Program-made: the position numbers and the translations under genes | Notes under the pieces: generated by a model | What the model was told of the DNA's origin: nothing | The model's input: the letters and a program-made list of their open reading frames with translations, nothing else | Databases searched by the model: none | Shown here: positions 8,935 to 64,000 of the stretch, in pieces | Position numbering within the stretch: the stretch's first letter is position 1 | Layout: every line of letters starts with the position of its first letter | Assembly (NCBI GenBank): GCA_041911995.1 | Contig: JAYRNW010000216.1 | Location: 261-64,260 of the forward strand | Origin: Casimicrobiaceae bacterium | GTDB lineage: Bacteria; Pseudomonadota; Gammaproteobacteria; Burkholderiales; Casimicrobiaceae | Length of the DNA stretch: 64,000 bases | Direction of reading: 5' to 3'

Positions 8935-9717
8935 TCAGTACCGCGGCATGTAGTTGAACGGGTTGACGATGTTGATGACGTCGCCCAGCAGCGAATCGCG
9001 CAGCGCCACCCGGCCCGGCGAGCGCTTGACCACGACGATGTCCTCGTTCACCAGCGACGGGTCCTCGAGCTCGCCCGCGCGGATGCGATCGAGGTCGTAC
9101 ACGTACGTCCGGCGCTCGCCGCCCTCGCGCCGGTACACCATCACCTCGTGCAGGTCGGGCAGCTGGCCCTGGCCACCGCCGATTGCAATGGCCTGCATCA
9201 GCGTCACGCCGCCGCGGATCGGGTAGATGCCGGGCTTAGCGACCGCGCCCTCGATCGTGATCCGCTGGCTCGTGAACTCCTTGATGAACACCGACACCTG
9301 CGGGTCGTGCAGGTAGTCCTTCGCGTACGCGGCGGCGATCTGCGCTTCGGCTTCCTGGCCGGTCTTGCCGGCCAGCACGACCGTGCCGACGAGCGGCAGC
9401 GACACCGTCCCGCGCGAGCTCACCCGCACCTCGCGGCGCAGGTTGTCGATGCCGAACACCTGGATCTCGAGCAGGTCCTGCGGCCCGATCCGGTAGTCGT
9501 CGGCGGCGACCTGCCCGGCGGGAACCGGGATCACCCGCGGGGCGTCGGGGGCGAGCGGCGCCGGGCCGCTCGGCGCCGCGGGCGCCGCAGCGGCCCCGGG
9601 CGCCGGTTGCGCGAACCCGGGCGCACCGACCGCCAGCAAGACGGCGAGGACGAGGACGGCCACGCAGCTTGCCGGAGGGCGGCCGACGGGGCGTGATTCA
9701 TCGAGGAAGCGGGGCAT
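8935..9717 (-). CDS. wza: Polysaccharide export protein (Wza/GumB; Poly_export + SLBB)
   Basis: DYRIGPQDLLEIQVFG, GTVSLPLVG, GAVAKPGIY; AAGGAG RBS ahead of ATG 9717. Confidence 0.92.
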   Translation of the reverse strand: MPRFLDESRPVGRPPASCVAVLVLAVLLAVGAPGFAQPAPGAAAAPAAPSGPAPLAPDAPRVIPVPAGQVAADDYRIGPQDLLEIQVFGIDNLRREVRVSSRGTVSLPLVGTVVLAGKTGQEAEAQIAAAYAKDYLHDPQVSVFIKEFTSQRITIEGAVAKPGIYPIRGGVTLMQAIAIGGGQGQLPDLHEVMVYRREGGERRTYVYDLDRIRAGELEDPSLVNEDIVVVKRSPGRVALRDSLLGDVINIVNPFNYMPRY

Positions 9718-9767
9718 GCGCGTCTCCTTCCCTGGGTGAGGGGCCGGGAGCCGAAAACAATCGGAAG

Positions 9768-9776
9768 AGTCTAGCA
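9768..9776 (-). promoter_or_regulatory. Possible extended -10 element for the wza operon
   Basis: Minus strand TG-C-TAGACT resembles TGnTATAAT, in an AT-richer patch ~50 nt upstream of wza. Confidence 0.3.
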
Positions 9777-9950
9777 TTTCGCAGGAAATGGAGGCCATGG
9801 CGCGCCGTTGGTTCCGAGGGCACGCAAGCCGCGTGCCCGAGCGCGCGATGGCGCCGGGCCGCCCCCGGCGCGAGCGCCCGACCGACGGCGGCCGGCTCTC
9901 CGGTCCGTGGGCTAGAATCGCCTGGAACGTCCCTCGCAGAGCGCCGCCCG

Positions 9951-10217
9951 ATGAAGGTGACCGTCCCCGACAGCGTGCTTTCCACCGAGCTTCAGGACGA
10001 GGGCGTGCTGCTCAACCTGGAGACCGGCGAGTATTTCGGCCTGGACGAGGTCGGCCTCGACATGTGGAAGTCGCTGGCGGCGGCCGGAACCGTGGCCGAA
10101 GCCCAAGCCGCGCTCCTCGCGCAGTACGACGTGGCCGAAGACGTCCTCGCCCGCGACCTCGAGGCGTTCGTCGCGAGACTCGTCGAACGCGGGCTCGTGC
10201 GGAGGGTCGATGACTAG
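9951..10217 (+). CDS. PqqD-family RiPP recognition element (lasso B1)
   Basis: MKVTVPDSVLSTELQDEGVLLNLETGEYFGLDEVG..MW..L..QYDVAEDVLARDL, the classic RRE pattern; overlaps the B2 gene. Confidence 0.92.
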   Translation: MKVTVPDSVLSTELQDEGVLLNLETGEYFGLDEVGLDMWKSLAAAGTVAEAQAALLAQYDVAEDVLARDLEAFVARLVERGLVRRVDD

Positions 10218-10722
10218 CGCCCGCTGGGGCGCCCCGAGGGCGCCCCTCCATAGCTTGCGCCGCTTCCGCGCGCTTCCGTCGCACGAACGGCGGCTGCTGG
10301 TGCGAGCAATGTTCCTGCTGGTGTTGGCCAGGGTGCGGCTGCCGTCGCTCGCCTTTCGTGCCGAGCGGACTGGCGGCGGCCGCGAACCGGCGTCTTCCGC
10401 CGACGGGCGGGGACTGGCGCACGGCCAAGTCGCGGCCCGCCTGCTGGCCATTGCGGCGTCCCGCCTGCCGTTGCACACGACGTGCCTGCATCGTTCGGTC
10501 GCGCTGTGGTGGCTGCTGCGCCGCGACGGCGTGCCGTGCGCGCTGCGCCTCGGAGCCCGCGCGGGCGGCGGAGCGTTCGCGGCGCATGCGTGGGTGGAAT
10601 GCGGCGGTGTGGCGCTCGGCGAGGCGCCCGGGCACGAACGGCGCTACCACCCGTTCGCCGGCAGCGTGTGCCCCGCGCGCGGCGAAGCGTTCGCGACGGG
10701 AAGCGAACAGGCGCTGCGATGA
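10210..10722 (+). CDS. Lasso peptide leader peptidase B2 (transglutaminase-like)
   Basis: TCLHRSVALWWLL..G....LRLGAR...FAAHAWVE: catalytic Cys and His motifs. Confidence 0.92.
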   Translation: MTSARWGAPRAPLHSLRRFRALPSHERRLLVRAMFLLVLARVRLPSLAFRAERTGGGREPASSADGRGLAHGQVAARLLAIAASRLPLHTTCLHRSVALWWLLRRDGVPCALRLGARAGGGAFAAHAWVECGGVALGEAPGHERRYHPFAGSVCPARGEAFATGSEQALR

Positions 10723-12599
10723 GCGGGATCGCCGGTATCGTCCACTTCGACGGCGCGCCGGTGACTCCCGGAGAGGTCGAGCGGATGACCCGCGTGATGG
10801 CGTATCGCGGACCGGACGGGATCGCGCACTGGAAGCGCGGTCCTGTCGCGCTCGGCCAGTGCATGCTGCGCACGACGCCGGAATCGCTGGAGGAGCGGCA
10901 GCCGCTGTCAAACGAGGACGCATCCGTCGTGCTCGTGATGGACGGACGCGTCGACAACTGGGAGGAGTTGCGGCGCGAATTGCTGACGCGTGGCGCGGCG
11001 CTACGCGACCGCTCGGACGCGGAGCTGGTGCTGCGCGCGTACGAGGCGTGGGGGCGCGAATGCCTGGCCCGCATCGACGGCGACTTCGCGCTCGTGATCT
11101 GGGACGCGCGGCGCCGGGAGGCCTTTTGCGCACGCGACCGGATCGGCAACAAGCCTTTCCACTATTGGTGGGACGGCAAGACCTTCGCGTTCGCATCGGA
11201 CGCGCACGCAATACTCGCGTTGCCGTGGGTGCGCGAAGAGCTGAACGAAGGCATGCTCGTCGAGTTCCTGGCAAACGAGTGGCATTCCCCCGACGAGACG
11301 TTCTGGCGTGGCGTGCTGCGGCTGCCGCGGGCGCAACGGATGACCGTGGACGTGCGCGGTCTGCACATCGATCGGTACTGGGAGCCGGACCTCAACGCAG
11401 CGTTGGCATGCACCGATGAACAAGAGGTCGCCCGACAGTACCGGTCGCTTCTCGTGGAAGCCGTGCGCAGAATGACCCGGTCGTCGCGTGCGGTGGCATG
11501 CGAGGTAAGCGGTGGCCTCGATTCTTCGGCAATCCTATCAGTGGCCGAACATCTGCGGCGCGAACACAGGATGCTTGCACCGGCGCTCCACGCCTACACG
11601 CTGGCGTTCGGCGACGGATCGGCGGCCGACGAACTGGCATATGCGCGGGCCGTCGGCGATCATCTCGACCTCCGGGTCCGTGAGGTTGCGCCAACCAGAA
11701 AGCCGCTGTCGTGGTATCGCGAAACTGCAGAGCGACTGCGCGTGTTTCCCGCGTATCCGAACGGGGTGATGGGACTTGGCATCCGTGAAGAAGCTGCCTC
11801 GCGTGGCAGCCGCGCGCTGCTGGTCGGCGTGGGCGGCGACGAGTGGTTGTCCGGGAGCCGCTGCTATTATGCCGACACGATCGCAGCGCGCGATTGGAAA
11901 ATGGTCCGACGATGCCTGCAAGCGGATCGTCGCGATTTCGGACTCTGGCGCAGCACGTGGTGGATCTTCAGGTGTGGGTGGATTCCGCAGCTGCCACGCG
12001 GCGTCCTGGACATGCTGCGCCGTCCGCGCGACGTCGTCCGGGATGTACGGCAGGACCGCAACACGTGGCTGACGCCTGCGATGCTGAAACAGCTTCGCGA
12101 CCGCCGAGCCCGGCATCGCCGCACCGGCGATTCCGGAACGTCCAGTTTCGCGCAATGGCGGCAGCTGCAATCGCTTGAGAGCCCATACCTCGCCCACGCT
12201 CGCGAAATGGAGGAACGGCTCGCCGCGCTTTCCGACATCGAGCTGCGCCGCCCGTTCCTGGACCAGGGTCTCGTCAGGTTCGCGCTGGCGGTGCCCGAGT
12301 GGCTGAGGCTGCGGGGCCGCACCGACAAGTACCTGCACCGAATGTCCATGCGCGGATACCTTCCGGAGACGGTACGGGCGCGGGAGACCAAGGCGGAATT
12401 CGTGATAACGTTTCTCTGGCACCTGCCCGAATTGGAAGCAGCGTTCCTGAGCGGCGCAGTCCGTGCACGTACTTCGTGGGTGACCAGCGAACGCGTGACA
12501 CAGATGAGCGAGCGGATGGCCAGCGCGAAGCTCTCCGGCGCGCCGGAGTGGAAGCTCTGGTCACTGTTCGGATGTGACGCACTGGTTGCGCGCCATTGA
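10719..12599 (+). CDS. Lasso cyclase (asparagine synthetase-like, C protein)
   Basis: Starts MSGIAG (Ser where Gln-hydrolysing AsnB has the catalytic Cys); SGGLDSS PP-loop, GVGGDE, RRPFLD; ATGA overlap with B2. Confidence 0.9.
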   Translation: MSGIAGIVHFDGAPVTPGEVERMTRVMAYRGPDGIAHWKRGPVALGQCMLRTTPESLEERQPLSNEDASVVLVMDGRVDNWEELRRELLTRGAALRDRSDAELVLRAYEAWGRECLARIDGDFALVIWDARRREAFCARDRIGNKPFHYWWDGKTFAFASDAHAILALPWVREELNEGMLVEFLANEWHSPDETFWRGVLRLPRAQRMTVDVRGLHIDRYWEPDLNAALACTDEQEVARQYRSLLVEAVRRMTRSSRAVACEVSGGLDSSAILSVAEHLRREHRMLAPALHAYTLAFGDGSAADELAYARAVGDHLDLRVREVAPTRKPLSWYRETAERLRVFPAYPNGVMGLGIREEAASRGSRALLVGVGGDEWLSGSRCYYADTIAARDWKMVRRCLQADRRDFGLWRSTWWIFRCGWIPQLPRGVLDMLRRPRDVVRDVRQDRNTWLTPAMLKQLRDRRARHRRTGDSGTSSFAQWRQLQSLESPYLAHAREMEERLAALSDIELRRPFLDQGLVRFALAVPEWLRLRGRTDKYLHRMSMRGYLPETVRARETKAEFVITFLWHLPELEAAFLSGAVRARTSWVTSERVTQMSERMASAKLSGAPEWKLWSLFGCDALVARH

Positions 12600-12657
12600 C
12601 GTTGATCGCCCCCGCCTTCGGAGTCCGGATGGAGGATGTTTTACGGAGACTGCCCGT

Positions 12658-12825
12658 ATGGATGACAAAGTGCGCGAAGCTACTCCGCGCGACGCCCAAC
12701 CGCAACCGGTGAGAAGGCACTACACAAGCCCGAAGCTGCAGGATTTCGGCAGGCTGCACCTGATGACGGGAGGAGCTTCCGTGACCGGAATGGCCGATGG
12801 TTCGTCGGGAATGGCCATGCAGTGA
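12658..12825 (+). CDS. Lasso peptide precursor (55 aa); predicted core GASVTGMADGSSGMAMQ
   Basis: Leader YTSPKLQDFGRLHLMTG fits YxxPxLxxxGxxxxxT(-2); core Gly1 with Asp9 acceptor; GGAG RBS; directly follows the cyclase. Confidence 0.88.
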   Translation: MDDKVREATPRDAQPQPVRRHYTSPKLQDFGRLHLMTGGASVTGMADGSSGMAMQ

Positions 12826-12949
12826 CGCATCGCTGCCCGGCCCGCGCTCACGACTCCGAAATCGACCAACTACTCGCGATGCGCAGTTCCGAAGTCTACG
12901 GATCGCCGGCGAGCCTCTCTGAATTCATCGAAAGTCCGGCAGGTTTCTT

Positions 12950-14068
12950 GTGCTTGATGAGCACCTCGGCTACGTCGCCGACCGCGTCAGGCTCGAGCAC
13001 TTCAAGGCCGCAATCGCGCGAACGCTTAACCCTGGCGATCGCGTCGTGGACGTCGGGACCGGCTCCGGGATCCTGGCGCTACTATGCCTGCAGGCCGGCG
13101 CGGCGCGGGTTGTCCTGATCGATTCCACGGCCATGCTCGACGTGGCACGCGATACCCTCGCACGCACGGGAATGGCCGATCGCTGCGAGTTCATTCGCGC
13201 ATCTTCGTATCGGACAACACTCGACGCGCCGGCCGATGTCGTGATCTGTGACCACGTTGGCCACTTCGGATTCGACTACGACATCGCGCAAACGATCAGG
13301 GACGCTCGACGACGATTCCTGGCGCCCGGGGGTCGCGTGATTCCGCAGCGGCTCCGTCTGGAAGTCGGCGCCGTCGAATCGGCGGCCGCTCGGACGAAAG
13401 TGGACGGGTGGCGCGACGATCGCGTTCCCGGCGAATTCCACTGGCTGGTACAACGTGCCGCCAACCGCAAGCACGCGATCAGATTCTCTCCGGAATCGCT
13501 TCTTGGCGGACCAGCCGAACTCGGCACGATTCACCTCCGGATTGATTCTGCGGAGTACTTCCGCTGGACGGCAGAGCTGCGCATCGAGCGAGATGGCGTC
13601 ATGCACGGTCTCGCCGGCTGGTTCGAATGCGAACTCGCGGACGGCGTTTGGATGACCAATTCGCCGCTCGAGGATCGCGCGATCGACCGCTCGCAGGCGT
13701 TCCTGCCGATCGACGAATCGGTCCCCGTGCGCGCGGGCGACGCGGTCAAGGTCACCGTGATGGCGCGACCCGAGGACAATCTGATCGCGTGGATCGTCGA
13801 ACTGCCTGCGGCGGGTCGGCGCTTCAGCCACTCGACCTGGCAGGGGTCGCTGCTGGCCCGGGATGGACTCCTGCGCGCGCAACCAGATCGCGTGCCGAGA
13901 TTGAGCCGGGAAGGCGCGGCGCGCGCAATCGTTCTCGGCTACTGCGACGGCCGGCGCTCCGTGCGCGAGATCGAACAGGCCGTGTTGATGGACCATCCGG
14001 ACCTGTTCCCGTCGCGCGGGGAGATCGCGCGGTTCGTGGCCCAGGTGCTGGGCCGGGATACCAACTGA
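12950..14068 (+). CDS. PRMT-like class I SAM methyltransferase with a C-terminal PqqD/wHTH-like extension
   Basis: EHLGYVADRVRLEHFKAAI, VVDVGTGSGIL, G.VIP, HGLAGWFE..L..GVWMTNSP (PRMT-like barrel); tail LGYCDGRRSVREI. Confidence 0.8.
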   Translation: MLDEHLGYVADRVRLEHFKAAIARTLNPGDRVVDVGTGSGILALLCLQAGAARVVLIDSTAMLDVARDTLARTGMADRCEFIRASSYRTTLDAPADVVICDHVGHFGFDYDIAQTIRDARRRFLAPGGRVIPQRLRLEVGAVESAAARTKVDGWRDDRVPGEFHWLVQRAANRKHAIRFSPESLLGGPAELGTIHLRIDSAEYFRWTAELRIERDGVMHGLAGWFECELADGVWMTNSPLEDRAIDRSQAFLPIDESVPVRAGDAVKVTVMARPEDNLIAWIVELPAAGRRFSHSTWQGSLLARDGLLRAQPDRVPRLSREGAARAIVLGYCDGRRSVREIEQAVLMDHPDLFPSRGEIARFVAQVLGRDTN

Positions 14069-14931
14069 TGGCCGCATTCCACGTCGCGCCGCATCGTCCG
14101 CAAGCGACGGTATCGATCCCGCCCTTCCATACCTGGTCTTTCGCCGACGGAACGACGTGGACGCAGTTCTACCGCGCCGATGGCGGGTACTTGGTGCGCT
14201 TTCCCCGGCTCGCGGACTTCGAAGTTTCCGCGGACGCAGACGGCGTCACGTGCTTCCCCACACCCGAAGCGTCCGAAGCCACGGTAGAGCATCTCTTTCT
14301 CAACCAGGTCCTGCCGCTGATCGAGAGCAGACGCGGCAAGCTCGTGTTCCATGCGAGCGCGGTCGAGGTCGGCGCCGTGGCCATCGCGTTCGTCGCCGAA
14401 TCCGGCCGCGGCAAGTCCACGCTGGCGGCTGCCTTCGCCGCCGCTGGCTACCGGCTGTTGACGGACGACGGCTTGGTCGTGGAAACGGGCGAGCACGGAT
14501 TCGAGATCCTTCCCAGTCATCCTTCCATCCGGTTGTGGGACGACAGCCGCGAGGCGCTGCTACCTCCAAGCGTCGCCCAAGCGCCGGCACTGGACTTCAC
14601 GACCAAGGCGAGGGTTCTCGCCGGTGACAGCCTTCCATTCTGCGCGGCGGCGCGACCATTGCTGCATGCGTATTTCCTCGGCGACGGCAGTGCCGATCGC
14701 ATCACGATCGCGCCCATGCATCAGGTTGACGCACTCGTGGCGTGGATCGGCCACTCCTTCCTGCTCGACATCGAGGAGAAGACCCGGCTGGCCTCCCATT
14801 TCACTCAAGTCGCCGTGCTGGCGAAGCAAGCGATCCATTACCGGCTGGACTATCCCAGGAAGTTCGATCATTTGGCGGAGCTCCGTCAGACCATCCTGGA
14901 GCACGCGTGCCATGCAACCGATGCCGTGTGA
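14068..14931 (+). CDS. HPr kinase-like peptide kinase
   Basis: FHASAVE, Walker A ESGRGKST, LLTDD; TGATG coupling to the methyltransferase. Confidence 0.85.
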   Translation: MAAFHVAPHRPQATVSIPPFHTWSFADGTTWTQFYRADGGYLVRFPRLADFEVSADADGVTCFPTPEASEATVEHLFLNQVLPLIESRRGKLVFHASAVEVGAVAIAFVAESGRGKSTLAAAFAAAGYRLLTDDGLVVETGEHGFEILPSHPSIRLWDDSREALLPPSVAQAPALDFTTKARVLAGDSLPFCAAARPLLHAYFLGDGSADRITIAPMHQVDALVAWIGHSFLLDIEEKTRLASHFTQVAVLAKQAIHYRLDYPRKFDHLAELRQTILEHACHATDAV

Positions 14932-15034
14932 CCTGCGCGAGCGGTTCCCCGATGCGGCGGGCCGCGCGCTTCCCGTGCTGCACGCGAGGCGGTGGCTCGC
15001 CGCCTTCGCCCGCGGCGCGCCACGCGCCAGGTGA
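14930..15034 (+). pseudogene. Probable C-terminal relic of a nucleotidyltransferase-family gene
   Basis: DLRERFPDAAGRALPVLHARRWLAAFARGAPRAR* resembles the C-terminus of the NTase at 56346-57443 (DYMHRKFRGRSPWLLPWWYVRRAVEG); its stop overlaps the ABC GTG. Confidence 0.4.
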
Positions 15035-16734
15035 CGGCAAGCTCCCCGTCGACGTGGCAGGCGCTGGCCGTCCCGGCCGCGCCGTACCGCGGGCCATTGC
15101 TGTGGGCCGCGGCGCTCATGCTGCTCGAGAGCGCATTGGCGCTCGGCGTGCCGTGGCTCGGCGGACGCCTCGCGGGGATGCTGCTGCCGGGCGGCGCGCA
15201 CGGGTCGGCCGGCGTGGCGACGATCCTCATGGCGCTCCTCGCGGTGTTCGCGGCGCAGGCGCTGCTGCGCTTCGGCCATGCGTTCCTGCTTGGCGACGCC
15301 GCCGAGCGGATGGTTCGCGACCTCAAGGTCCGGCTGTACGACCACCTGCAGGCGCTCCCGCTCGCGTACTTCCACGCGCGTCGGCACGGCGAGACGCTGG
15401 CGCTGCTCACGCGCGACGTCCACGTCGTCTCCGGCTATGCGACCGGAACGCTGGTGCCGCTCGCGCCGCTGCTGTTCACCGTCGCCGGGTCGCTGCTGCT
15501 GATGTTCCGGCTGCAGCCGTGGCTCGCGCTCGCGGCGGCCGTGGCGATTCCGCTCTTCTACCTCGCGCTCAAGGTCGTCGGCCGCCGGCTGCGCCCGCTC
15601 GCCGCGGCGCTGCAGGACGAGCACGCGACCGCGATCGCGATCGCCGAGGAGAACTTGGGCATGCTGCCCGCCATCAAGTCGTTCACCCGCGAGCGCGTCG
15701 AGTCGTCGCGGTTCCGGCAGCAGGTCGACCGTGTGCTGCAGCTCACGCGCCGGCAGCTCGCCATGCACGCGGCGCTCGGCCCCGTCGTGCAGTTCGTCGC
15801 CGCGCTCGGCGTCGTGGCGTTGCTCGCGCTCGCGAGCCGGGAGCTCGCCGACGGCCGGATGACGCCGCCCGAGCTCGTCGCCTTCCTGCTCTACGCGATG
15901 CTGCTCGCGCGGCCGGTCGCCGGGCTGGCCGACGTCTACGGGCAGACGCAGACGGCGCGCGGCGCGCTCGCGCGGCTCCTGCAGGCGCTGGACGCGCCGC
16001 CCGAGCCGGCGGCCACCACCGGTGTCGCGCTGCCGCCGGTGCGCGGCGCGATCGCGTTCGAGCACGTGTCGTTCGCCTATCCGGGAAGGCCGCCGGCGCT
16101 GCGCGACGTCGACCTGCACGTGCGGCCGGGCGAGACGGTGGCGATCGTCGGGCCCAACGGTGCGGGCAAGAGCACGCTCGCCCACCTGCTGGTCCGCCTG
16201 CACGAGCGCACCGGAGGGCGCATCGCGATCGACGGGGTCGACGTCGCGACGGTGTCGCTCGAGAGCCTGCGGCGCGTCGTCGGCGTCGTCCCGCAGCACG
16301 TGCTGCTGTTCAACGCGACGGTCCGCGACAACATCGCGTACGGCCGCGCCGAAGCGACGCAGCCGGCGATCGAGGCGGCGGCGCGCCTCGCCCGCGCGCA
16401 CGATTTCGTCGTCGCCCTGCCGCACGGCTACGACACCGTCGTCGGCGACCGGGGCGTGCGCCTGTCGGGCGGGCAGCAGCAGCGGCTCGCGCTCGCACGG
16501 GCGCTGCTCAAGGACCCGCCGATCCTGATCCTCGACGAGGCGACCGCGATGTTCGATCCGCAGGGGGAGCGCGAATTCCTCGAAGCGTCGCGCGACGCGC
16601 TGCGCGGACGTACCGTGCTGCTGATCACGCACCGGGCGGCCAGCCTCGCAGTGGCAGACCGCATCGTGCGGATGGAGGACGGACACGTGGTCGACGACGG
16701 CGCGGCGGCGGCGCGTCCGCCGGTGTCGGTGTAG
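15031..16734 (+). CDS. ABC exporter, fused permease/ATPase (lasso D-like)
   Basis: TM domain followed by GPNGAGKST, LSGGQQQR, ILDEAT; start GTG 15031 (alternative 14992). Confidence 0.92.
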   Translation: MTASSPSTWQALAVPAAPYRGPLLWAAALMLLESALALGVPWLGGRLAGMLLPGGAHGSAGVATILMALLAVFAAQALLRFGHAFLLGDAAERMVRDLKVRLYDHLQALPLAYFHARRHGETLALLTRDVHVVSGYATGTLVPLAPLLFTVAGSLLLMFRLQPWLALAAAVAIPLFYLALKVVGRRLRPLAAALQDEHATAIAIAEENLGMLPAIKSFTRERVESSRFRQQVDRVLQLTRRQLAMHAALGPVVQFVAALGVVALLALASRELADGRMTPPELVAFLLYAMLLARPVAGLADVYGQTQTARGALARLLQALDAPPEPAATTGVALPPVRGAIAFEHVSFAYPGRPPALRDVDLHVRPGETVAIVGPNGAGKSTLAHLLVRLHERTGGRIAIDGVDVATVSLESLRRVVGVVPQHVLLFNATVRDNIAYGRAEATQPAIEAAARLARAHDFVVALPHGYDTVVGDRGVRLSGGQQQRLALARALLKDPPILILDEATAMFDPQGEREFLEASRDALRGRTVLLITHRAASLAVADRIVRMEDGHVVDDGAAAARPPVSV

Positions 16735-56345: not shown

Positions 56346-57443
56346 ATGCTGTGCCAGGCCCTTCGTGGCGAACCGTCGGCATGGCCGGAAGGAGACGCCG
56401 CGCGGCTCGAGCAGCAACTCCTCGAGTCCTGCCGCGTCGAGGCGGTCGGCCCCCTCCTCCATCACGGCCTGCGCCCGTCGGCGGTCGCGGCGACGTGGCC
56501 CCTTGCGGTGCGCGAGTTCCTCGCGCACGAGTCGAGGATGCACGCGGCGCTCGACCTGCTGCGCGAGAACGAGCTGCGCGTCGTGCTTGCCGCGATGGCC
56601 GCAGCGGGTATCGCGACGCTGCTGCTCAAAGGTGCGGCGCTCGGCTACACGCACTATCCCAGCCCGGCGCTGCGGACCCGTTGCGATGCCGACGTGTGGA
56701 TCCGGCCGGAAGACCGCGACGACGGCGCGCGCGTGCTGGAAGCCATGGGCTACGTACGCTACGACGCCATCGCCGGCTCGCTGGTGAGCTACGAGGATGC
56801 GTTCCGCAAGCGCTGCGGCACGATCGAGCACGTGGTGGACCTGCACTGGCAGGTCAACAACGGCCAGGTGTTCGCGCACGCGTTTGCCTGGGACGATGCT
56901 TACGCGCGTTCCGTGCCGGTGCCGCAGCTTGGCGCAAGGGTGCGCACGCCGTATCCGCCGCATGCGCTCCTGATCGCTTGCATGCACCGCGCGGCACACC
57001 TCGGCATGGAAGGTCCCGGCGGAGTCCGCCTCATCTGGCTCTTCGACCTGCACCTCATCGCCGGCGCGATGCGCGACTCCGAGTGGCAGGAATTCGTCGA
57101 GCATTGCAGGACCACGAAGATGCGCGCGATCGCGATGGATGCCCTCCTGTGCACGCAGCGGCGGTTCCGGACGGCGCTCCCCGCCGGTGTGATCGCCGCG
57201 CTGACGGAGCGCACGCCGCCGGAGCTCTCGGCCCGGTATCTTCACGCCGGCCGCGCCGGCGTCCTGCTCACCGATCTGCGGGCCTTGCCGACCTGGCGCA
57301 AGCGCGCGAGGCTGCTGCGCGAATCGTGGTTGCCCTCGCGCGATTACATGCACCGCAAGTTCCGGGGGCGCAGCCCCTGGCTGCTGCCGTGGTGGTATGT
57401 GCGGCGCGCGGTTGAAGGCGCGTTGAAACTCGCGCGCCACTGA
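56346..57443 (+). CDS. Nucleotidyltransferase family protein (NTP_transf_5-like, RiPP-associated)
   Basis: LLLKGAAL...Y....LR...DADVW, VDLHW, RLIWLFDL; start uncertain (alternative ATG 56211). Confidence 0.85.
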   Translation: MLCQALRGEPSAWPEGDAARLEQQLLESCRVEAVGPLLHHGLRPSAVAATWPLAVREFLAHESRMHAALDLLRENELRVVLAAMAAAGIATLLLKGAALGYTHYPSPALRTRCDADVWIRPEDRDDGARVLEAMGYVRYDAIAGSLVSYEDAFRKRCGTIEHVVDLHWQVNNGQVFAHAFAWDDAYARSVPVPQLGARVRTPYPPHALLIACMHRAAHLGMEGPGGVRLIWLFDLHLIAGAMRDSEWQEFVEHCRTTKMRAIAMDALLCTQRRFRTALPAGVIAALTERTPPELSARYLHAGRAGVLLTDLRALPTWRKRARLLRESWLPSRDYMHRKFRGRSPWLLPWWYVRRAVEGALKLARH

Positions 57444-57510: not shown

Positions 57511-58425
57511 ATGAATTTTGCCGAACGTTATCTCAACGAGCCCGACCTGTTTCCCGCGCGTCAGAGCGGCGAGCCTTGGGGCCCGGAGCAGGTGATCGTC
57601 CGGTTCGCAGGCAACGACTATCGCTGCACCGACTTGAGCGCAACGCAGGCTGCGGCAATGCGGGAGCGCTTCGGCGCGCTCTGCGTCCCGTCCGCCGACG
57701 GCTCGCGGCCGACGGCGGACATCCGCCTGTTCCGCGCGCCCTATTCGGATTTCGTGGCCGGCGAGCACGAGTGGGAGTTCGACTTCGCACTGGAATATGC
57801 GCCGGAATCCGTGTGCTTCGCCGGCTCCCACTTCGTGGGCCGCCTCGACTGGCAGCCGCACCTCCGGGCCGCCCTGTGGACGCCCGAGGACGAGCGCCTC
57901 GTTGCGCACGCCATCCTCGAGAACGTGCTCCGGACCGTGGTGGCGTATCACCTCCTGGAGCAGCGCTCGGTGTTGCTGCACAGCGCGGCCGTCGTCGACG
58001 GCGGCGGTGCGCACGTCTTCTTCGGTCCCTCCGGCGCCGGCAAGTCGACCATCTCGCGCCTCGGCGTCGCGAGCGGCCGCGCCGTCCTGAGCGACGACAT
58101 GAATGCGTTGCGCGTCACGGCCGAAGGCGTCGTCGCGGAGCAGCTGCCGTTTGCCGGAGACCTCGGCCAGGCCATGGCGACCGACGCCGGCAGGTACCCG
58201 GTGCGCAACCTCTGCCGCCTGCGCAAGGGGGACACGGCCAGCCTGCGCCCCATGCGGCCCGCGGCCGCCATCGCCGCATTGCTGGAGTGCGCGCCGTTCG
58301 TCAATCGTAACCCGTTCCGGCACGACGAACTGGTGGCAGCGCTCGCCGGCCTCAACGACAGGCTTCCGGTGCAGGTGCTAACATTTGCGCCCGACGCGCG
58401 CGTCTTCGACCTGTTCCGGCACTGA
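57511..58425 (+). CDS. HPr kinase-related P-loop kinase
   Basis: LLHSAAVV, FFGPSGAGKST, LSDD, PF.G. Confidence 0.8.
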   Translation: MNFAERYLNEPDLFPARQSGEPWGPEQVIVRFAGNDYRCTDLSATQAAAMRERFGALCVPSADGSRPTADIRLFRAPYSDFVAGEHEWEFDFALEYAPESVCFAGSHFVGRLDWQPHLRAALWTPEDERLVAHAILENVLRTVVAYHLLEQRSVLLHSAAVVDGGGAHVFFGPSGAGKSTISRLGVASGRAVLSDDMNALRVTAEGVVAEQLPFAGDLGQAMATDAGRYPVRNLCRLRKGDTASLRPMRPAAAIAALLECAPFVNRNPFRHDELVAALAGLNDRLPVQVLTFAPDARVFDLFRH

Positions 58426-58435
58426 AGCATTCGCG

Positions 58436-58714
58436 ATGACACTCACGACGACTTTCCGGAAGCGACCGGATGTCCGCTTTCGCAACATCGGCGGCGAGGG
58501 CATCGTCGTCATGCAATCCTCGGCCGAGGTCCTCGTGGTGAGCGAAGTGGGCGCGCGCGTGCTCGAGCTCATCGAGTCCGGCAACGCCGTCGGCGGCATC
58601 CTGACCGCGATCTCCGCGGAATACGACGTGGACAGCGCCGTCCTCGAGCACGACGCGCTGGCCTATCTGCAGCAGCTGCTGGATGCGGACGTCATCGAAG
58701 TCGCGACGGCCTGA
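58436..58714 (+). CDS. PqqD-family RiPP recognition element
   Basis: FRNIGGEGIVV..SEVGARVLELI...I...ISAEYDVD...LEHD...YL. Confidence 0.9.
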   Translation: MTLTTTFRKRPDVRFRNIGGEGIVVMQSSAEVLVVSEVGARVLELIESGNAVGGILTAISAEYDVDSAVLEHDALAYLQQLLDADVIEVATA

Positions 58715-58765: not shown

Positions 58766-59824
58766 GTGAGCTTCGGGCAGACGCAAAAGCGGATCTGGCG
58801 CGAGAACATCCTGTTCTCCGCGCTGGTCGAGCTCACCTACCGCTGCAACCTCGACTGCTACTTCTGCTACAACGACACCGGGCTCAAGGGCGCTCCCCTG
58901 ACGACCGCGGAGTACTTCCGGTTCTTCGAGGACCTGCGCGACCTGGGAACGCTCAACCTGACGCTGTCCGGCGGCGAGCCGCTCGCGCATCCCGAGTTCT
59001 TCGTGCTGGGCGCGAAGGCCCGCGCGCTTGGCTTCGTGGTGCGCGTGAAATCCAATGGTCATGCGCTGCGCGGCACGCTGGCGCGCCGGATGAAGGACGA
59101 GGTCGACCCGTTCATCGTCGAGGTGAGCCTGCATGGCGCTTCCGCCGACGTGCACGACCGCCAGACGCGTGTTCCCGGCAGCTTCGCGCGCCTCATGGCC
59201 AACGTCCGCGCGGCGCAGGCGCTGGGATTGCGGATCAAGCTGAACAGCCCCCTGACCGCGTGGAACGAACACCAGGTCGAGGCCATGTTCGCGTTGGCGG
59301 ACGAGCTGGCCGTGCCGATCCAGTTCGACGCGGAGGTCACGGGGCGCGACAACGGGGACCCTTCCCCGCGGACCATCAGCCCGTCGAAGGAAGGCGTTGC
59401 GAGGTTGCTGCAGGTGGAGCAGCGCCGGGCTGGCGCGCATTTTCAGGCCCGCGGGCCGGACCTGGTCCGTGCTGCGGACGCAGTCCCTGCGGAGCCGACG
59501 GATCCGATTCCCGACAAGCATTGCGGTGCGGGCTCCTCGTCGCTCACCGTGGATCCCTACGGAAACGTGTACCCGTGCGTGCAGTGGCGTCGGCGCGTGG
59601 GCAACCTGCACATGGACTCGGTGAAGGCGCTCTGGCAGGGTTCGCCGGAGCTGCACCGCGTGCGTGCGCTCGCGGTCGAGGTCAAGCAGACGGTCGATCG
59701 CTTCGGGGCACCCGGACTGGGATTCTGTCCGGGGCTCGCCGAACGGGAGGCCGGTCACGCCACTCGCGTGTATCCGATGGCGCAGGTCATGCTCGACCTG
59801 CGCAAGCGCCCGCAGGTGACGTGA
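58766..59824 (+). CDS. Radical SAM enzyme with SPASM/twitch-like C-terminal domain
   Basis: ELTYRCNLDCYFCY (CxxxCxxC), SGGEP, SNG, VSLHG, CGAG....TVDPYGNVYPC, FCPG. Confidence 0.93.
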   Translation: MSFGQTQKRIWRENILFSALVELTYRCNLDCYFCYNDTGLKGAPLTTAEYFRFFEDLRDLGTLNLTLSGGEPLAHPEFFVLGAKARALGFVVRVKSNGHALRGTLARRMKDEVDPFIVEVSLHGASADVHDRQTRVPGSFARLMANVRAAQALGLRIKLNSPLTAWNEHQVEAMFALADELAVPIQFDAEVTGRDNGDPSPRTISPSKEGVARLLQVEQRRAGAHFQARGPDLVRAADAVPAEPTDPIPDKHCGAGSSSLTVDPYGNVYPCVQWRRRVGNLHMDSVKALWQGSPELHRVRALAVEVKQTVDRFGAPGLGFCPGLAEREAGHATRVYPMAQVMLDLRKRPQVT

Positions 59825-59925
59825 CACCGGGTCCCGCCGGCGGCGATCCGGAACCGGCCACCGCACCCGAGCGCCTTGCGCGCCATCGTTCCCCTGGAGT
59901 ACGCGCCAAGCGGCATCGCGCCGCG

Positions 59926-60123
59926 TCAGGACTTCGCGATGCCGCAGATGGCCGCGTTCGGCTTGCCGCGCGACGTGCCGCCCGGGCAGGTCGCCGCCAT
60001 CGCCTCCAAAGCCTCGCGCGACAGGATCCGCGGGGGCTCGTATCGCTTGCGCGACGGGTGCCTTTCCGGCTGCGGAGAACTCGTCGTTGTCGTGGCGGCG
60101 GCCGGTTTCGTGTTGTCGGACAT
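59926..60123 (-). CDS. Putative RiPP precursor (65 aa) MSDNTKPAAATTTTSSPQPERHPSRKRYEPPRILSREALEAMAATCPGGTSRGKPNAAICGIAKS
   Basis: GGAG RBS; RRE-binding-type motif KRYEPPRI; two Cys and C-terminal Ser; fills the gap between the rSAM and C25 genes. Confidence 0.78.
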   Translation of the reverse strand: MSDNTKPAAATTTTSSPQPERHPSRKRYEPPRILSREALEAMAATCPGGTSRGKPNAAICGIAKS

Positions 60124-60182
60124 GATGCTCTGCTCCCGAATGCGCTTCGCCGGTGCTCGCAGCCGCCGCGCGCTGCCGGTTC

Positions 60183-63100
60183 TCAGCGCGGAATCCGCAG
60201 CGCCGGGTCGCCGATGACCTGGTAGATGTCCATCATATAGCGTTGCCCGCCCTTCCTGGCAAGGTCCGCCAGGGCGGATACGGCTGCCTCGCCAAGGGTC
60301 GCACGCGGGTTGGGTCCGGCCAGCGCGTCGACGAGACTCAGGCTCAACGTGCTCGCCTGCTCGTCGACGGACAGCCCGGTGGGCGCGAAGGCCGCGACGG
60401 CGCCGCCGCCCTTCCGCCACAGCAGCGTCTCCACCAGCGAGGTGGTGCCGGGATAGCTCCCATCGCCCACTTCGCAGGTGAACGCCGTGAAGATCGGCAA
60501 TCGCGCGCCGTTGTCGAGCAGGCTCACGTCGTCGTTGCTGAACAGCGGGTCGCCGGGGTCGTGCCCGAGTTCGAAGTACGCGCCGTGGCCAAAGTAGTTG
60601 AACAGTCCCACGCCGGTGGTCGAATTGAGCGCGGCGACCACCGTCTGGCGCACCTCGTTTCCAGACGCGCTTGCGGCACGATTGACCGTCGTCACGGCGA
60701 CTTTCCGGGACTGCAGGGCCTGTGCCACGAGCAGGCTGTCGGCCGTGAAATTACCGGCTTCCGGATCGGGGTTGTCGGCGACCAGCAGGGCCGGGCTCAA
60801 ACCGGTGCGCATGCCAACGGCCGGGAAGGCAGTCTCGTACGCGCGCAACTTGGCGACGTAGTTGGTGACATCGTCGACGGTTCGCGCGGGAATGCGGCCG
60901 ATGGCGATGTCGGGTACGCCGTCGTCGTTGAAATCGGCGTAGCGGTTGTCCGAGTTGAACAGGCCATTCGGCGTCGGCGCAAGAAGCACAGGGAAGAGGT
61001 TGTAGGCAAAACCCCGGTATTCCTTCGGGTCGATCGTGCCCTTGCCCAGCAGCGCGACATTACTCGGCCGCGTGCTCCAGTTCCGATAGGCGTACGCGAG
61101 GAAGTCCCGGATCGCATGCGGATTGGCGATACCGTAGTTGAACTCGTCGTAGATGTCCTGCAGGCCCACGACCTTTCCCCCGCGATATGCGGCGAGCAGG
61201 TCGGCCCCGGTGCGCAACGATTGGGGCGTCAGAACGAGGTAGCTTGCGGCATTTGCCGTGCTCTTCAGCGTCGACGGCGTGCCGGCCTCGACCGAGTACG
61301 GAGGCTGCGCTACGGCCGCGAGGTACGTCGGGACGGACCCGGTCGGCGCGAAACTGACGGCGAAAGGCGCGCCGGACGACACGGTGGCATTGCTCATCCA
61401 CCGCGGCTTGCGCGGATCGCTGATATCGAGCACGACGATGTCGGATCGGCTGAATCCGTCGACGCGGACCACCGCGTTGCCGGCGCCACGCAGGCGCAGG
61501 CGATCGCCGAGCGCCCGGTACGCACGCGAGTAGCCGACGTCGAACGCCTTCACCCAGAAGAAGCTGTCCGCGCCGGACGGCACGTCGGCGGTCATGCGGA
61601 CGATGTTGTCGCCGCTGTTGAGACAGCTCGCCGCAAACGGCTGCGTCGTGAACACCTGGGGCGCGATCCCCTTCCACGCGGGACTGGCGCCGAGGTCGCA
61701 ATTCTGGGACGACGGATTGAGCGTCAGGCGCGCGCTGCGCTGGTCGCTGCTCGCCCCCAGCATCGTCACGGTCAGGGTGGCGGTCCCCCCCGCGCCAGCC
61801 ACGTCCGGCACCGGGACCCGGAAGTCGGTCGCGCCGCCGCCGGCCCAGACGTAGTCCCAATACCAGAGGTCGGCGTCGGGATCGGTGAACAGGAAGTACA
61901 GCGGCTTGCCGTACTGCGCCACATGAACACTGGATGGGAACGACTGCCCCGCCGGCGCCGCACCGGAACGTGGAGCACCGGCGGTGCCCATCGCAAGCCC
62001 CGCGCCCTGGTCGAGCCAGTAGACGTTGTAGCGCGTGTACACGCTGTCGTTCCCGCTGACCGCCTCGCCGTAGAAGAACAGGCGATCATTCTGCGATCCG
62101 GCCTTCCAGGCGACCTGCTGGCCGCCCTGCTGCAGCCGCAGCTGGCTTCCAGCGATCCACTGGCGGACATCGATCGGATTCGCGCCGAGCGCGGTCGCGA
62201 TCTGGTCTGCGGTGATCACGTAGAGACCCTCGTCCTCGACCCGGATGCGCATGGCGGAGCCCGGGTTCGCGATCCCGGATGACGCGTTCTTCGGGCTGAT
62301 CGAAGCGGCGGGCGCGGGGTTGGCCACTGCGAGGTCGGATGCGTGCGCCACGCGCTCGAATTTCTGCGCCCCCGGCGTCGACCGCGGATTCGGCCGCACG
62401 GGGGCGACCTCCGCGATCGCGCGCCGGGGGGCCGGCTTCGCACTGCCCCCGACGACGGAGAACGGTCCGTAAACGCGTCGATTGCCGCTGGCTTCGATTT
62501 CCTCGATGCCGTAGGTGGTGGCGACACCGGGAACCACGAGCGGGTCCGCAAACCGATAGACCCCGCCCTGTCGCGTCGCCCCCAGCGCCGGCAGCAGTCG
62601 ATCGTTCAGCTTGACGAACGTGTCCGTGCTCGCATCGAGCCGATAAACGTTGAAGCCCGTCGTACCGATTTCCGAGGCGGTTTCCCACTCGAACCATGAC
62701 TGTCCGCCGGCGGCGTAAGCGCGGACATCCGCGATCACCGCGTGCGTGGCGAGAACCACGTCGGAGAACACGAGATCGGAAAGCCAGATGACCTGGACGC
62801 TCGGGTTGCCGCCACACCCGCCGCCGCAGTCCCCCGGCGTGTATTGAAGCAGGACCGAGCGAACGGACTTGGTCGCGAAATTGAACGATGCCCACGTCGA
62901 TGGATCGCTTTCGTTGCCCGCGCCACCGCCGGTGCCGGTTGCACTGACGGAATTGCTGGAAGTGCAAATCGATGTCGTCGTCGCGCCCGCAGGGCCGCCG
63001 CTGATCCCGTGCGACCCGGCCGCGACCGCCGCGGTCGCACACTGCCCGGTACCGGCACGGGCCCACCCGGGCGCCGCCGCGGTGAACTGGGTCAGGGCAT

Positions 63101-63647
63101 CGGGATTGATCAGCGTTCCGGTCGAATCCCGTGCCGTGACCGTGACGACATCCATGTAGTTGTTGGCGTTCGACCGGTCGATGTCCCGGACCGCGACGCC
63201 CCTGACCGACGCCGGCTTCGCGGTGCACGATGTCACCGTGGCGCCCGGCTGGCAGAACTCGTACAGCAACGTGATGTTCGACGTCGTGAGATTGCTGAAG
63301 TTGATGCCCAGAAACAGCTCCGGGCCCTGGCCCGGACTGTTGTTGAGGCAGGGGACGACCGGCGCGTTCCCCCCGCAGGGCCCCCCGCCGTACGACGACC
63401 AGGCCCCGTTGACCATTCCGATGCTCACCCGGATGTCGTACCCCGACCCCGCGACGTTCGCATAGACGCGCGGAGCGGTGGAGCCGGAGGTCCAGCCACC
63501 CGCCGTGGTCCAGTCGAACGTCCATTCGGTGGCCGCCGACTGCGGCACCACGCCGACGAGCGTCAGGATGCCGAGAAGCACGGCAGCAAAGAACCGTCCG
63601 GCGCCGCGGCCGATCGCCGACGCCGTGCATCGTGGATTCGTGATCAT
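60183..63647 (-). CDS. Large exported C25-family (gingipain-like) cysteine peptidase with an N-terminal beta/adhesin-like region
   Basis: Signal/TM segment; QDIYDEFNYG, ALLGKGT.D, SDN.Y.D...D..PDIAIGRIP, NYFGHG (His), FTCEVG (Cys), GGAVA, IGDP; ATGA overlap with the upstream gene. Confidence 0.88.
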   Translation of the reverse strand: MITNPRCTASAIGRGAGRFFAAVLLGILTLVGVVPQSAATEWTFDWTTAGGWTSGSTAPRVYANVAGSGYDIRVSIGMVNGAWSSYGGGPCGGNAPVVPCLNNSPGQGPELFLGINFSNLTTSNITLLYEFCQPGATVTSCTAKPASVRGVAVRDIDRSNANNYMDVVTVTARDSTGTLINPDALTQFTAAAPGWARAGTGQCATAAVAAGSHGISGGPAGATTTSICTSSNSVSATGTGGGAGNESDPSTWASFNFATKSVRSVLLQYTPGDCGGGCGGNPSVQVIWLSDLVFSDVVLATHAVIADVRAYAAGGQSWFEWETASEIGTTGFNVYRLDASTDTFVKLNDRLLPALGATRQGGVYRFADPLVVPGVATTYGIEEIEASGNRRVYGPFSVVGGSAKPAPRRAIAEVAPVRPNPRSTPGAQKFERVAHASDLAVANPAPAASISPKNASSGIANPGSAMRIRVEDEGLYVITADQIATALGANPIDVRQWIAGSQLRLQQGGQQVAWKAGSQNDRLFFYGEAVSGNDSVYTRYNVYWLDQGAGLAMGTAGAPRSGAAPAGQSFPSSVHVAQYGKPLYFLFTDPDADLWYWDYVWAGGGATDFRVPVPDVAGAGGTATLTVTMLGASSDQRSARLTLNPSSQNCDLGASPAWKGIAPQVFTTQPFAASCLNSGDNIVRMTADVPSGADSFFWVKAFDVGYSRAYRALGDRLRLRGAGNAVVRVDGFSRSDIVVLDISDPRKPRWMSNATVSSGAPFAVSFAPTGSVPTYLAAVAQPPYSVEAGTPSTLKSTANAASYLVLTPQSLRTGADLLAAYRGGKVVGLQDIYDEFNYGIANPHAIRDFLAYAYRNWSTRPSNVALLGKGTIDPKEYRGFAYNLFPVLLAPTPNGLFNSDNRYADFNDDGVPDIAIGRIPARTVDDVTNYVAKLRAYETAFPAVGMRTGLSPALLVADNPDPEAGNFTADSLLVAQALQSRKVAVTTVNRAASASGNEVRQTVVAALNSTTGVGLFNYFGHGAYFELGHDPGDPLFSNDDVSLLDNGARLPIFTAFTCEVGDGSYPGTTSLVETLLWRKGGGAVAAFAPTGLSVDEQASTLSLSLVDALAGPNPRATLGEAAVSALADLARKGGQRYMMDIYQVIGDPALRIPR

Positions 63648-64000
63648 GCGTTCTGCCAAGGAATGCCGAGCATCTTCTGCAACCTGCGCAATGCGGCGGA
63701 AGGCAATCCGCCAAGCCGGCGCCCGCCGGCCGAGCGACGGCCGGCCACCTGCCAACCTCGCATGATCACCCGTGCAAGCACGCAGTGTGCCAGCGAGGAT
63801 CGCCGCATGACCCAGGCCACGGCCCGCAGCGCCGCCGTCTCCCGCCGGAGGACGGCATGCTCGCCGTGCATGCGCCGCACGGCGACGACCACGCCAAGCA
63901 CGTCGGCAACGTGCACCGGCAGGTCAGGATGCGCCGTCGCGTCGCCCTGGGTCAGCAGCACGGCGTCCGGTGCGGCAGGCGACCTGCCGGTGACCCGATG
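63644..64000 (-). CDS. S24/S26 signal-peptidase-like protein, C-terminal part (runs off the window)
   Basis: Frame from 64000 reads HRV.......VLLTQGDA...PD.PV...DVLGVV, matching the S26 HR / GD boxes. Confidence 0.7.
   Translation of the reverse strand, partial: HRVTGRSPAAPDAVLLTQGDATAHPDLPVHVADVLGVVVAVRRMHGEHAVLRRETAALRAVAWVMRRSSLAHCVLARVIMRGWQVAGRRSAGGRRLGGLPSAALRRLQKMLGIPWQNA

Follow-up and report, generated by a model that had tools for sequence, protein, structure and literature searches.

A 64,000-nucleotide stretch of a Casimicrobiaceae genome (GenBank assembly GCA_041911995.1, contig JAYRNW010000216.1, positions 261 to 64,260; hereafter the window) carries, on its minus strand, an open reading frame (ORF) of 65 amino acids. 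This small conserved ORF, which co-occurs with a RiPP recognition element (RRE) and modifying enzymes, is a precursor, predicted to be RRE-dependent, of a peptide made by the ribosome and modified after translation (RiPP). On balance, we predict that it gives rise to a peptide of 22 residues, bridged by thioether and phosphorylated on Ser, and that this peptide works with a PorU-like C25 enzyme. The precursor would serve as substrate for a widespread cassette of radical S-adenosylmethionine (SAM) enzyme, kinase, S26 peptidase and C25 protein, and the residues that matter can be named: the Ala43–Ala44 bond, Cys46, Lys54, Cys60 and Ser65. Judged from sequence, it is a member of a RiPP family without published description. 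Neither peptide nor cassette was found in the full-text literature, whose coverage mostly excludes subscription journals, or by term look-ups in PMC7470986, PMC12710340, PMC13622209 and PMC11002830.

A conserved precursor gene

The precursor and its core map as follows.

59926..60123, minus strand: precursor peptide gene, 65 aa (translation, codon bias, homologues, family profile)
60133..60136, minus strand: ribosome-binding site GGAG, 9 nt ahead of the start codon (ATG at 60123; sequence)
59929..59994, minus strand: predicted 22-aa core Ala44–Ser65 (cut-site inference and conserved residues)
59988–59986, 59964–59962, 59946–59944 and 59931–59929, minus strand: core residues Cys46, Lys54, Cys60 and Ser65 (conserved)

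The ORF (60123–59926) is confirmed as a real, conserved gene because of its codon bias, synonymous drift, family conservation and co-occurrence with the radical SAM enzyme. Its translation matches the peptide quoted in the initial annotation of this DNA, and it forms the tail of a longer open frame that begins at a GTG and was listed as 59926–60420. The G+C content at third codon positions is 0.88 over the 65 codons, compared with 0.84–0.88 in neighbouring genes and 0.61 in the upstream in-frame extension. Across the 19 codons from leader to Cys in 105 homologues, mismatches concentrate at third positions, with 922 there, 461 at the first and 293 at the second. The ribosome-binding site and ATG that the initial annotation had assigned to the gene were both located in the sequence, and the same MSDN start occurs in two close homologues at 82% and 74% identity. 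The low-complexity N-terminus that it had noted is unconserved in the family, where about 5–55 residues precede the Tyr of the leader motif. Expression of the gene has a weak, strand-blind hint from a single study. Between 56 and 64 kb, the long exact contigs listed from one metatranscriptome run are confined to 59856–60078 and 60144–60296; for a 19.5-kb control stretch, any depth was seen in 8 of 30 bins and all listed pieces were short. A second run (X2), probably of DNA, gave no cover over the precursor gene, and missing cover elsewhere is not evidence. No sigma-70 promoter or terminator above chance was found between the convergent precursor and radical SAM genes.

To describe the family we analysed loci holding relatives of the radical SAM enzyme, 80 of them from genomes (the best of 168) and 80 from metagenomes (the best of 243); the genome loci come mostly from Thermoanaerobaculia and other Acidobacteriota, with some Competibacteraceae and other Pseudomonadota. 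A precursor profile grown from four peptides (best reversed-sequence decoy E 0.23) finds a homologue in 132 of these 160 loci, and in 122 of the 132 loci with at least 600 nt downstream. All five tested genomes whose locus lacks a precursor carry one elsewhere. The homologue search that the initial annotation had proposed for genomes bearing the radical SAM enzyme succeeded: homologues exist that conserve the Y..P together with both Cys and the final Ser, so its refuting condition does not apply. In a blind even draw from the window's class, 399 other genomes were scored; the precursor profile matches 6 of them, the radical SAM profile matches these 6 and no more, and all seven new peptides keep the pattern C..K..C..S-stop. 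That pattern is present in 131 of 134 precursors, compared with 4 of 19,828 background segments, and a leader-only profile retrieved 133 ORFs from 29,717 segments, 132 of them with the full core. Against 1.84 billion representatives, the precursor profile matched 849 clusters (50% identity) at E <=0.001 and 167 at 1e-10. Among the 57 loci that extend 6 kb or more to each side, the kinase and the RRE are each present in 57, the precursor in 55, the S26 peptidase in 54, a nucleotidyltransferase in 37 and the C25 protein in 31. Pfam and NCBIfam hold no family for the precursor (none of 41 aligned members matched NCBIfam), and a PDB sequence search returned nothing significant. Residue counts below refer to 109 unique locus sequences and 149 top database matches; the rows left out of them were L131 (unparsed) and P0001 itself (among 150 listed), while in the blind draw G313 was unscored.

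Predicted leader recognition and removal

The leader and the proteins predicted to read and remove it are these.

60022..60042, minus strand: RRE-recognition motif Tyr28-x-x-Pro31-x-Ile33-Leu34 (Tyr/Trp, Pro and Ile/Val near-universal in homologues)
59995..60003, minus strand: predicted signal-peptidase-type site Ala41-Met-Ala43, cut after Ala43 (from the −1/−3 residues and the LppA register)
58385..58714, plus strand: discrete RRE, PqqD family (PF05402 E 5e-11; PDB matches TbiB1, 9x90, 9x8z)
63644..64000, minus strand: 3' part of an S26/SipW-like peptidase (TIGR02228; G-x-S-M-x-P, His and Asp motifs)

The proposal in the initial annotation that the precursor has an RRE-type leader is supported by conservation of the Y..P, YxxP being a known RRE recognition motif (PMC12710340). 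The family motif is YxxPxILxRExLEAxAxxC, with the Cys at core position 3. Between the Tyr/Trp of YxxP and the first Cys there is no indel in 136 of 137 locus sequences (109 unique) or in any of the 149 database matches, by a parse that required the Pro and the Cys. Leader position 13 is Glu in 109/109 and 148/149 sequences, and position 16, which corresponds to −1, is Ala in 108/109 and 148/149, with a small or aliphatic residue at −3.

The closest guide to the cut site is the system of linear polyphosphorylated peptides (LPP), whose leader reads YxxPxVLxHQxIxFETxxS; there the SipW-like LppS cuts after T-1 with RRE help, residues −3 to −1 of LppA being F-3, E-2 and T-1 (PMC13381572). The solved LppA leader (9x8z) aligns to the precursor family at E 1.1. 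Its Tyr is residue 12 of 27, and the cut therefore falls after the 16th residue counted from Tyr. In the window peptide this residue is Ala43, with Ala41 at −3, and Cys46 stands in register with the phosphorylated Ser3 of LppA. The two Ala residues also suit the (−3,−1) pattern of signal peptidases.

We propose that the RRE would bind Tyr28–Leu34, a step we consider very probable, and that it would then present the Ala43–Ala44 bond to the SipW-like S26 peptidase, a likely step by analogy with LppB and LppS. A model of the RRE–leader complex gives weak support (it scored 0.58, and the best of three controls 0.01), with runs agreeing in at least 91% of contacts and partner predicted local distance difference test (pLDDT) values of at least 56. 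Of 157 solved pairs, 116 reached the mark used, as did 2 of 215 mismatched pairs; among the pairs that reached it, only 18 solved ones but both mismatched ones scored 0.60 or below. The model may have passed through memory of solved lasso and LPP complexes.

The S26 gene runs past the window to window-equivalent position 64213. Its stop codon and the start of C25 overlap as ATGA, and its product scores 51.5 bits against TIGR02228 (cut-off 51.85). Of 101 S26 rows across the loci, 86 have a Cys nucleophile, 7 a Ser and 1 an Ala, and 7 were unparsed; in most S26 homologues Cys stands in place of the catalytic Ser (G-x-C-M-x-P). The S26 proteins of the window and of L089 keep Ser; both are encoded upstream of C25 and not ahead of the kinase.

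The core and its predicted cross-link

The core features read by the initial annotation (Cys46-x13-Cys60, Ser65 before the stop and no Asp or Glu after Cys46), like Tyr28-x-x-Pro31-x-Ile33 in the leader, are all correct in the sequence. The x13 spacing is true of the window peptide, while the family varies from 5 to 14 residues with a mode of 12. Absent from that annotation was a Lys between the two Cys, which is found in 108/109 locus sequences and 148/149 database matches; it also missed the S26 peptidase with its predicted cut site and the link to C25. The second Cys is kept in 109/109 and 148/149, and Ser is the very last residue in 108/109 and 148/149, whatever the core length. The spacing from the first Cys to the Lys is 2–13 (4–7 in 144/148), and that from the Lys to the next Cys 5–11 (6 in 106/148). 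An Asp or Glu occurs anywhere in the core in 18/109 and 74/149 sequences, at no fixed place, and the window core has none.

Two other motif assignments were tried and rejected. A lipobox reading of A-A-T-C is at odds with the residue before Cys, mostly Val, Thr or Ile in the family, and with the missing hydrophobic stretch; the sulfatase-type motif C-x-P-x-R is unconserved.

The precursor gene faces, and is convergent with, the gene for the candidate cross-linking enzyme.

58766..59824, plus strand: radical SAM enzyme with truncated SPASM (Twitch-like) domain (PF04055, PF13186; below every NCBIfam cut-off)

Its CxxxCxxC motif is invariant, and in the alignment it is followed only by Cys253, Cys271 and Cys321. 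Exactly three Cys from the first auxiliary Cys onward are found in 148 of 150 full-length relatives, and a CxxC in none. Because there are exactly three auxiliary Cys and no CxxC, the sequences imply a single auxiliary cluster with an open iron. In CteB, the open AuxI site binds core Cys3 of CteA (PMC6231123). By its sequence, the three-Cys auxiliary site suits thioether chemistry: with the leader held, Cys46 at its fixed distance could bind the open iron of the auxiliary cluster. The radical SAM enzyme would then form at least one bridge from Cys sulfur to carbon, a step for which we put the chances a little above even. The best candidate for the acceptor is Lys54, with Cys60, six residues off, as the better-spaced donor; this assignment is tentative and would be the less probable part of the proposal.

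The predicted structure of the enzyme (pLDDT 77.6) matches SuiB, SkfB, PqqE and CteB in fold without discriminating the chemistry. Its best family models are NirJ, AhbD, PqqE and MftC, all far below cut-off, and the StsB model scores 75 bits (cut-off 625). The six active-site-proximity residues, mapped by motif, are Y,S,K,S,V,Q, to be compared with Y,T,I,S,K,L in StsB and F,F,T,S,H,Q in CteB (PMC10288494). Lys95 is invariant and faces the active site where StsB and CteB have a neutral residue; several Arg are also invariant.

Predicted phosphorylation of the terminal serine

Two plus-strand genes encode the predicted phosphate chemistry.

57511..58425, plus strand: HprK-like peptide kinase (His157, GxxGxGK and Asp-Asp conserved; TIGR04352 E 4e-6, below cut-off)
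56346..57443, plus strand: PF14907 nucleotidyltransferase, PsmN/LppN-like, accessory (E 2e-38)

The kinase is homologous to a kinase from a paeninodin cluster (hhalign 97% probability), whose peptide ends in Ser; this comparison covered one lasso kinase, of the terminal-Ser type. PsmK phosphorylates a C-terminal Ser, and PsmN is needed to add a hexose to it (PMC6993621). Other precedents point elsewhere: LppK polyphosphorylates core Ser3 (PMC13381572), and BsfK is strictly regioselective for core residue 3 (PMC10368454). Phosphorylation at the terminal site is favoured because Ser is fixed as the last residue whatever the core length. We therefore envisage that the HprK-like kinase would probably phosphorylate or polyphosphorylate Ser65, and that the nucleotidyltransferase, which is accessory, might decorate the Ser65 phosphate where it is present, as PsmN does. 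The suggestion in the initial annotation that the terminal Ser fits an adjacent kinase is plausible by the PsmK/PadeK precedent, although the genes for kinase and peptide are 1.5 kb apart and on different strands.

The probable C25 partner

The remaining member of the cassette is the largest.

60183..63647, minus strand: PorU-like C25 cysteine protease/transpeptidase, 1154 aa, signal peptide (PF01364 E 2e-65)

The gene starts with an ATG at 63647, followed by a hydrophobic N-terminus, and ends 60 nt before the precursor ATG. Its His and Cys dyad is conserved in 35/35 sequences. The best PDB match is PorU (6za2, E 2e-38), ahead of RgpB (4e-26) and Kgp (7e-15), and the PorU model NF033707 gives 178 bits (cut-off 420). 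The family lacks a conserved acid at the gingipain S1 positions, which we take to be Kgp Asp516 and RgpB Asp163: the Kgp position aligns near Ala300, which is Ala in 30/35, and the RgpB Asp163 position is variable. A role for C25 as a Lys-specific leader or ring protease was rejected on the missing acidic S1 pocket residue. Cargo tails for type IX secretion (T9SS; TIGR04183) were found in none of five genomes, and the control matched nowhere either. In G062, G064 and G065 there are six to eight C25 matches per genome, with open frames of up to about 5,400 aa.

Precursor and C25 genes are associated in several ways. The precursor lies no more than 500 nt downstream of C25 in 62 of the 76 loci that have both, and in G231, where the cassette is split, it remains with C25. 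In the blind draw, C25 is found in five of six precursor genomes and in 10 of the other 394, with two of the six sharing a genus (kin are not independent). The association can also be covalent. P0243 (1426 aa) consists of a signal peptide, a C25 domain, a MYXO-CTERM segment (26.5 bits, cut-off 20) and the precursor in frame, and its tail is kept in all 11 members of its cluster (P0243, P0276–P0285), which derive from JGI, Logan and ENA. P0274, a fragment from a separate cluster, has the same MYXO-CTERM–precursor end, with no Met between helix and leader. Given the MYXO-CTERM topology (PMC11980579), the fused peptide would by analogy lie in the cytoplasm, one-to-one with the protease. Only P0243 among 274 candidates is a long fusion with this tail, and no C25–precursor fusion occurs among the C25 ORFs of the 160 loci. 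Two more long proteins ending in a precursor, P0138 and P0156, were set aside as probable frameshift read-throughs, being singletons that keep their own Met. We consider it reasonably likely that, at the cell envelope, the mature peptide would act together with the C25 enzyme after secretion of the latter.

Genome setting and distribution

The nucleotidyltransferase, kinase, RRE and radical SAM genes lie on the plus strand, facing the S26, C25 and precursor genes on the minus strand; no cassette member reaches an NCBIfam cut-off. In the wider set, loci often lie among O-antigen-ligase, sugar-transferase and polysaccharide-export genes. Recurring neighbours include an O-antigen-ligase-TPR protein (45 loci, for example L061:3689-6070) and an ORF of about 800 aa without Pfam match (41 loci, for example L032:6537-8384). 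A second module of RRE, kinase and nucleotidyltransferase often adjoins the cassette in Thermoanaerobaculia (L021, L027–L029, L033, L065 and others). Two precursor genes occur in L078, in G141 (L163, L170) and in G469 (L175, L177); one of those in G141 stands beside a lone RRE on another contig.

The window's own genome has no second copy of the precursor, radical SAM, kinase or C25 gene. The cassette looks recently acquired, because the radical SAM enzyme was not found in 60 relatives (36 of the same genus) and none of the 60 has C25 above cut-off. Its GC content (67–70%) is slightly below that of the genome (about 72%), and it is apparently inserted between a gdhB-like gene and a flavin-reductase-like ORF, labels given without a family match.

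A separate lasso-type cluster lies in the window at 9669-16734 on the plus strand, inside a polysaccharide locus and 47 kb from the precursor. It comprises a PqqD/B1 gene (to 10217), a B2 gene (10210-10722), a cyclase-like gene (to 12599; NF033535 390 bits, cut-off 525), an unannotated 55-aa precursor (12658-12825) with YxxPxL, Thr-2 and Asp9, and then genes for a methyltransferase, an HprK-like kinase and an MsbA-like exporter. By sequence, two YxxP pathways thus coexist in this genome, a situation also met in the LPP paper (PMC13381572).

Competing explanations

Several observations weigh against a thioether-bridged phosphopeptide that works with C25. The active-site profile of the radical SAM enzyme matches neither StsB nor CteB, the sole two compared. 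Both Cys–Lys spacings vary, which sits poorly with one rigid cross-link, and the two Cys could simply be joined as a disulfide. Ser3, the target of LppK and BsfK, is in the register of Cys46, and the kinase site is thus uncertain. No exporter recurs in the cassette among the recurring families scanned. In 39 loci with room upstream, the fetched flank has no C25; of five such genomes checked, four have C25 elsewhere above cut-off and G061 has only a sub-threshold match, and G323 (81% complete) has no C25. The P0243 and P0274 fusions are known from protein sequences alone, not from DNA context. The hidden Markov model used for selection covers the core, and the conservation counts partly reflect this; related Thermoanaerobaculia make up the bulk of the loci. 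One precursor (L012:12352-12534) lacks the Lys and ends in Thr; it is separated from its radical SAM gene by inserted small genes and is possibly decaying.

Two alternatives are unlikely. PorU joins cargo to the amine of an aminoacyl-sugar (PMC7468200), which suggests that the peptide may be a linker. The radical SAM enzyme would bridge the Cys elsewhere and leave Lys54 free as the nucleophile for C25-transferred cargo; phospho-Ser65, extended by the nucleotidyltransferase, would tie the peptide to a surface glycan or lipid, making it a ribosomal stand-in for the seryl-sugar of anionic lipopolysaccharide (A-LPS). A Lys that is near-invariant yet flexible in position fits this idea, as do the setting of the loci among polysaccharide genes, the adjacency and fusion with C25, and a C25 closest to PorU without a conserved acid at the positions that presumably form S1 in Arg- and Lys-gingipains. 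Against it, the cassette lacks an exporter, no cargo signal was identified, the nucleotidyltransferase is missing in 20 of 57 long loci, and the fusions place the peptide in the cytoplasm and the protease domain outside (PMC11980579). At much the same low probability, an orphan PorU-like sortase found outside Bacteroidota could use the radical-SAM-bridged phosphopeptide as its anchor on the surface, with cargo transferred to the Lys by transpeptidation and the phospho-Ser bound to envelope glycan; in some lineages the peptide would be produced one-to-one as cytoplasmic tail of the MYXO-CTERM-anchored sortase. Marginally less probable still is that the Cys pair forms a disulfide, for which a loop of variable length (5–14 residues) is suitable, and that the radical SAM enzyme targets Lys54 or the C-terminal (phospho)Ser with chemistry other than thioether formation, such as an oxidative decarboxylation or side-chain oxidation like those of MftC or AhbD. 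The ranking of NirJ, AhbD, PqqE and MftC as best family models, each far below cut-off, would agree with this, as would the invariant Lys95 at the active site and several invariant Arg that could bind an anion. However, engagement of Cys is indicated by the three-Cys auxiliary site and by the constant distance that separates a Cys from the RRE motif, and whole-length similarity is a poor predictor of radical SAM chemistry (PMC10288494).

The remaining alternatives are far less probable. Were the kinase to act at core position 3, Cys46 would be S-phosphorylated or activated and the terminal Ser kept for another step; the exact register of Cys46 with LppA Ser3 and the regioselectivity of BsfK (PMC10368454) favour this. 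Nevertheless, a last-residue Ser in 148/149 sequences is the signature of PadeK and PsmK, the one comparable lasso kinase was of the terminal-Ser type, and LppK rejected even Thr and Tyr (PMC13381572), which together leave this option very improbable. We give almost no weight to the idea that the ORF is not a gene, or is a lasso precursor served in trans by the cluster 47 kb away. The DNA is GC-rich, the ORF forms the end of a longer open frame, and a full lasso cluster with a YxxPxL precursor does lie at 9.9-16.7 kb; the non-gene option is refuted by codon bias, synonymous drift, conservation and co-occurrence. The initial annotation had already excluded a lasso peptide from the lack of Asp/Glu in the core, and the comparison bears this out: cyclase-like (Asn-synthetase-like) genes are present in only 2 of 160 loci and in none of the recurring families scanned, Ala rather than Thr stands near the cut, and a precursor with Thr-2 and Asp9 already belongs to the lasso cluster. 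The bridged, Ser65-phosphorylated partner of C25 remains the reading we prefer.

Comparison with known systems

The family joins two questions through its C25–precursor fusions: the role of phosphorylated RiPPs in polysaccharide loci, described as unknown in PMC13381572, and the role of PorU-like C25 enzymes outside Bacteroidota. New enzymology is likely, in a radical SAM reaction involving Lys and in a signal-peptidase fold with a Cys nucleophile. If the sortase-anchor explanation were true, a RiPP would be part of a protein-sorting system instead of serving as antibiotic or signal; the lesser novelty, if true, would be a radical SAM enzyme that links Cys to Lys by a thioether.

Several named systems share parts of the cassette. 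NCBIfam SynChlorMet (TIGR04249-51), GeoRSP (TIGR04302-3) and HPr-rel-A (TIGR04352) are uncharacterised sets with radical SAM, PqqD and HprK-like members, but all their models are far below cut-off and the window cassette has one radical SAM enzyme only. PorU, the T9SS sortase (6za2; PMC7468200), is the best solved match to the C25 protein and shares its His-Cys dyad and signal peptide, whereas the cassette enzyme scores below the PorU cut-off, occurs in non-Bacteroidota hosts and is tied to a RiPP precursor. With sactipeptides and ranthipeptides (SkfB, CteB, StsB) the cassette shares an RRE-dependent SPASM/Twitch radical SAM enzyme, an apparently open auxiliary site and a Cys-containing core. 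It differs in falling below the family cut-offs, in its active-site profile, in having two Cys with a Lys between them and in its kinase, S26 and C25 partners, which are not known in these classes; membership of them is putative.

The phosphorylated lasso peptides, paeninodin (PadeK) and pseudomycoidin (PsmK/PsmN; PMC6993621), have the YxxP leader, RRE, C-terminal Ser, homologous kinase and nucleotidyltransferase in common with the cassette, which in contrast has no cyclase, B2 protease, Thr-2 or fixed ring Asp/Glu. The likeness to LPP (LppA/K/B/S/D/N; PMC13381572) extends to a YxxPx(V/I)L leader in register, a discrete RRE, a SipW-type peptidase, an HprK-like kinase, a PF14907-type NTP transferase and a setting in polysaccharide loci. 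Unlike LPP, the cassette includes a radical SAM enzyme together with a C25 protease, and no MsbA-like exporter; its core has Cys rather than Ser at position 3 and is short, with Cys, Lys, Cys and a terminal Ser where LPP C-termini are variable; its S26 nucleophile is mostly Cys; and it is found in metagenome-assembled genomes of Acidobacteriota and Pseudomonadota, not in Bacillota. Membership of the lasso and LPP classes therefore fails, and the family would work like LPP and paeninodin tailoring with a radical SAM step added.
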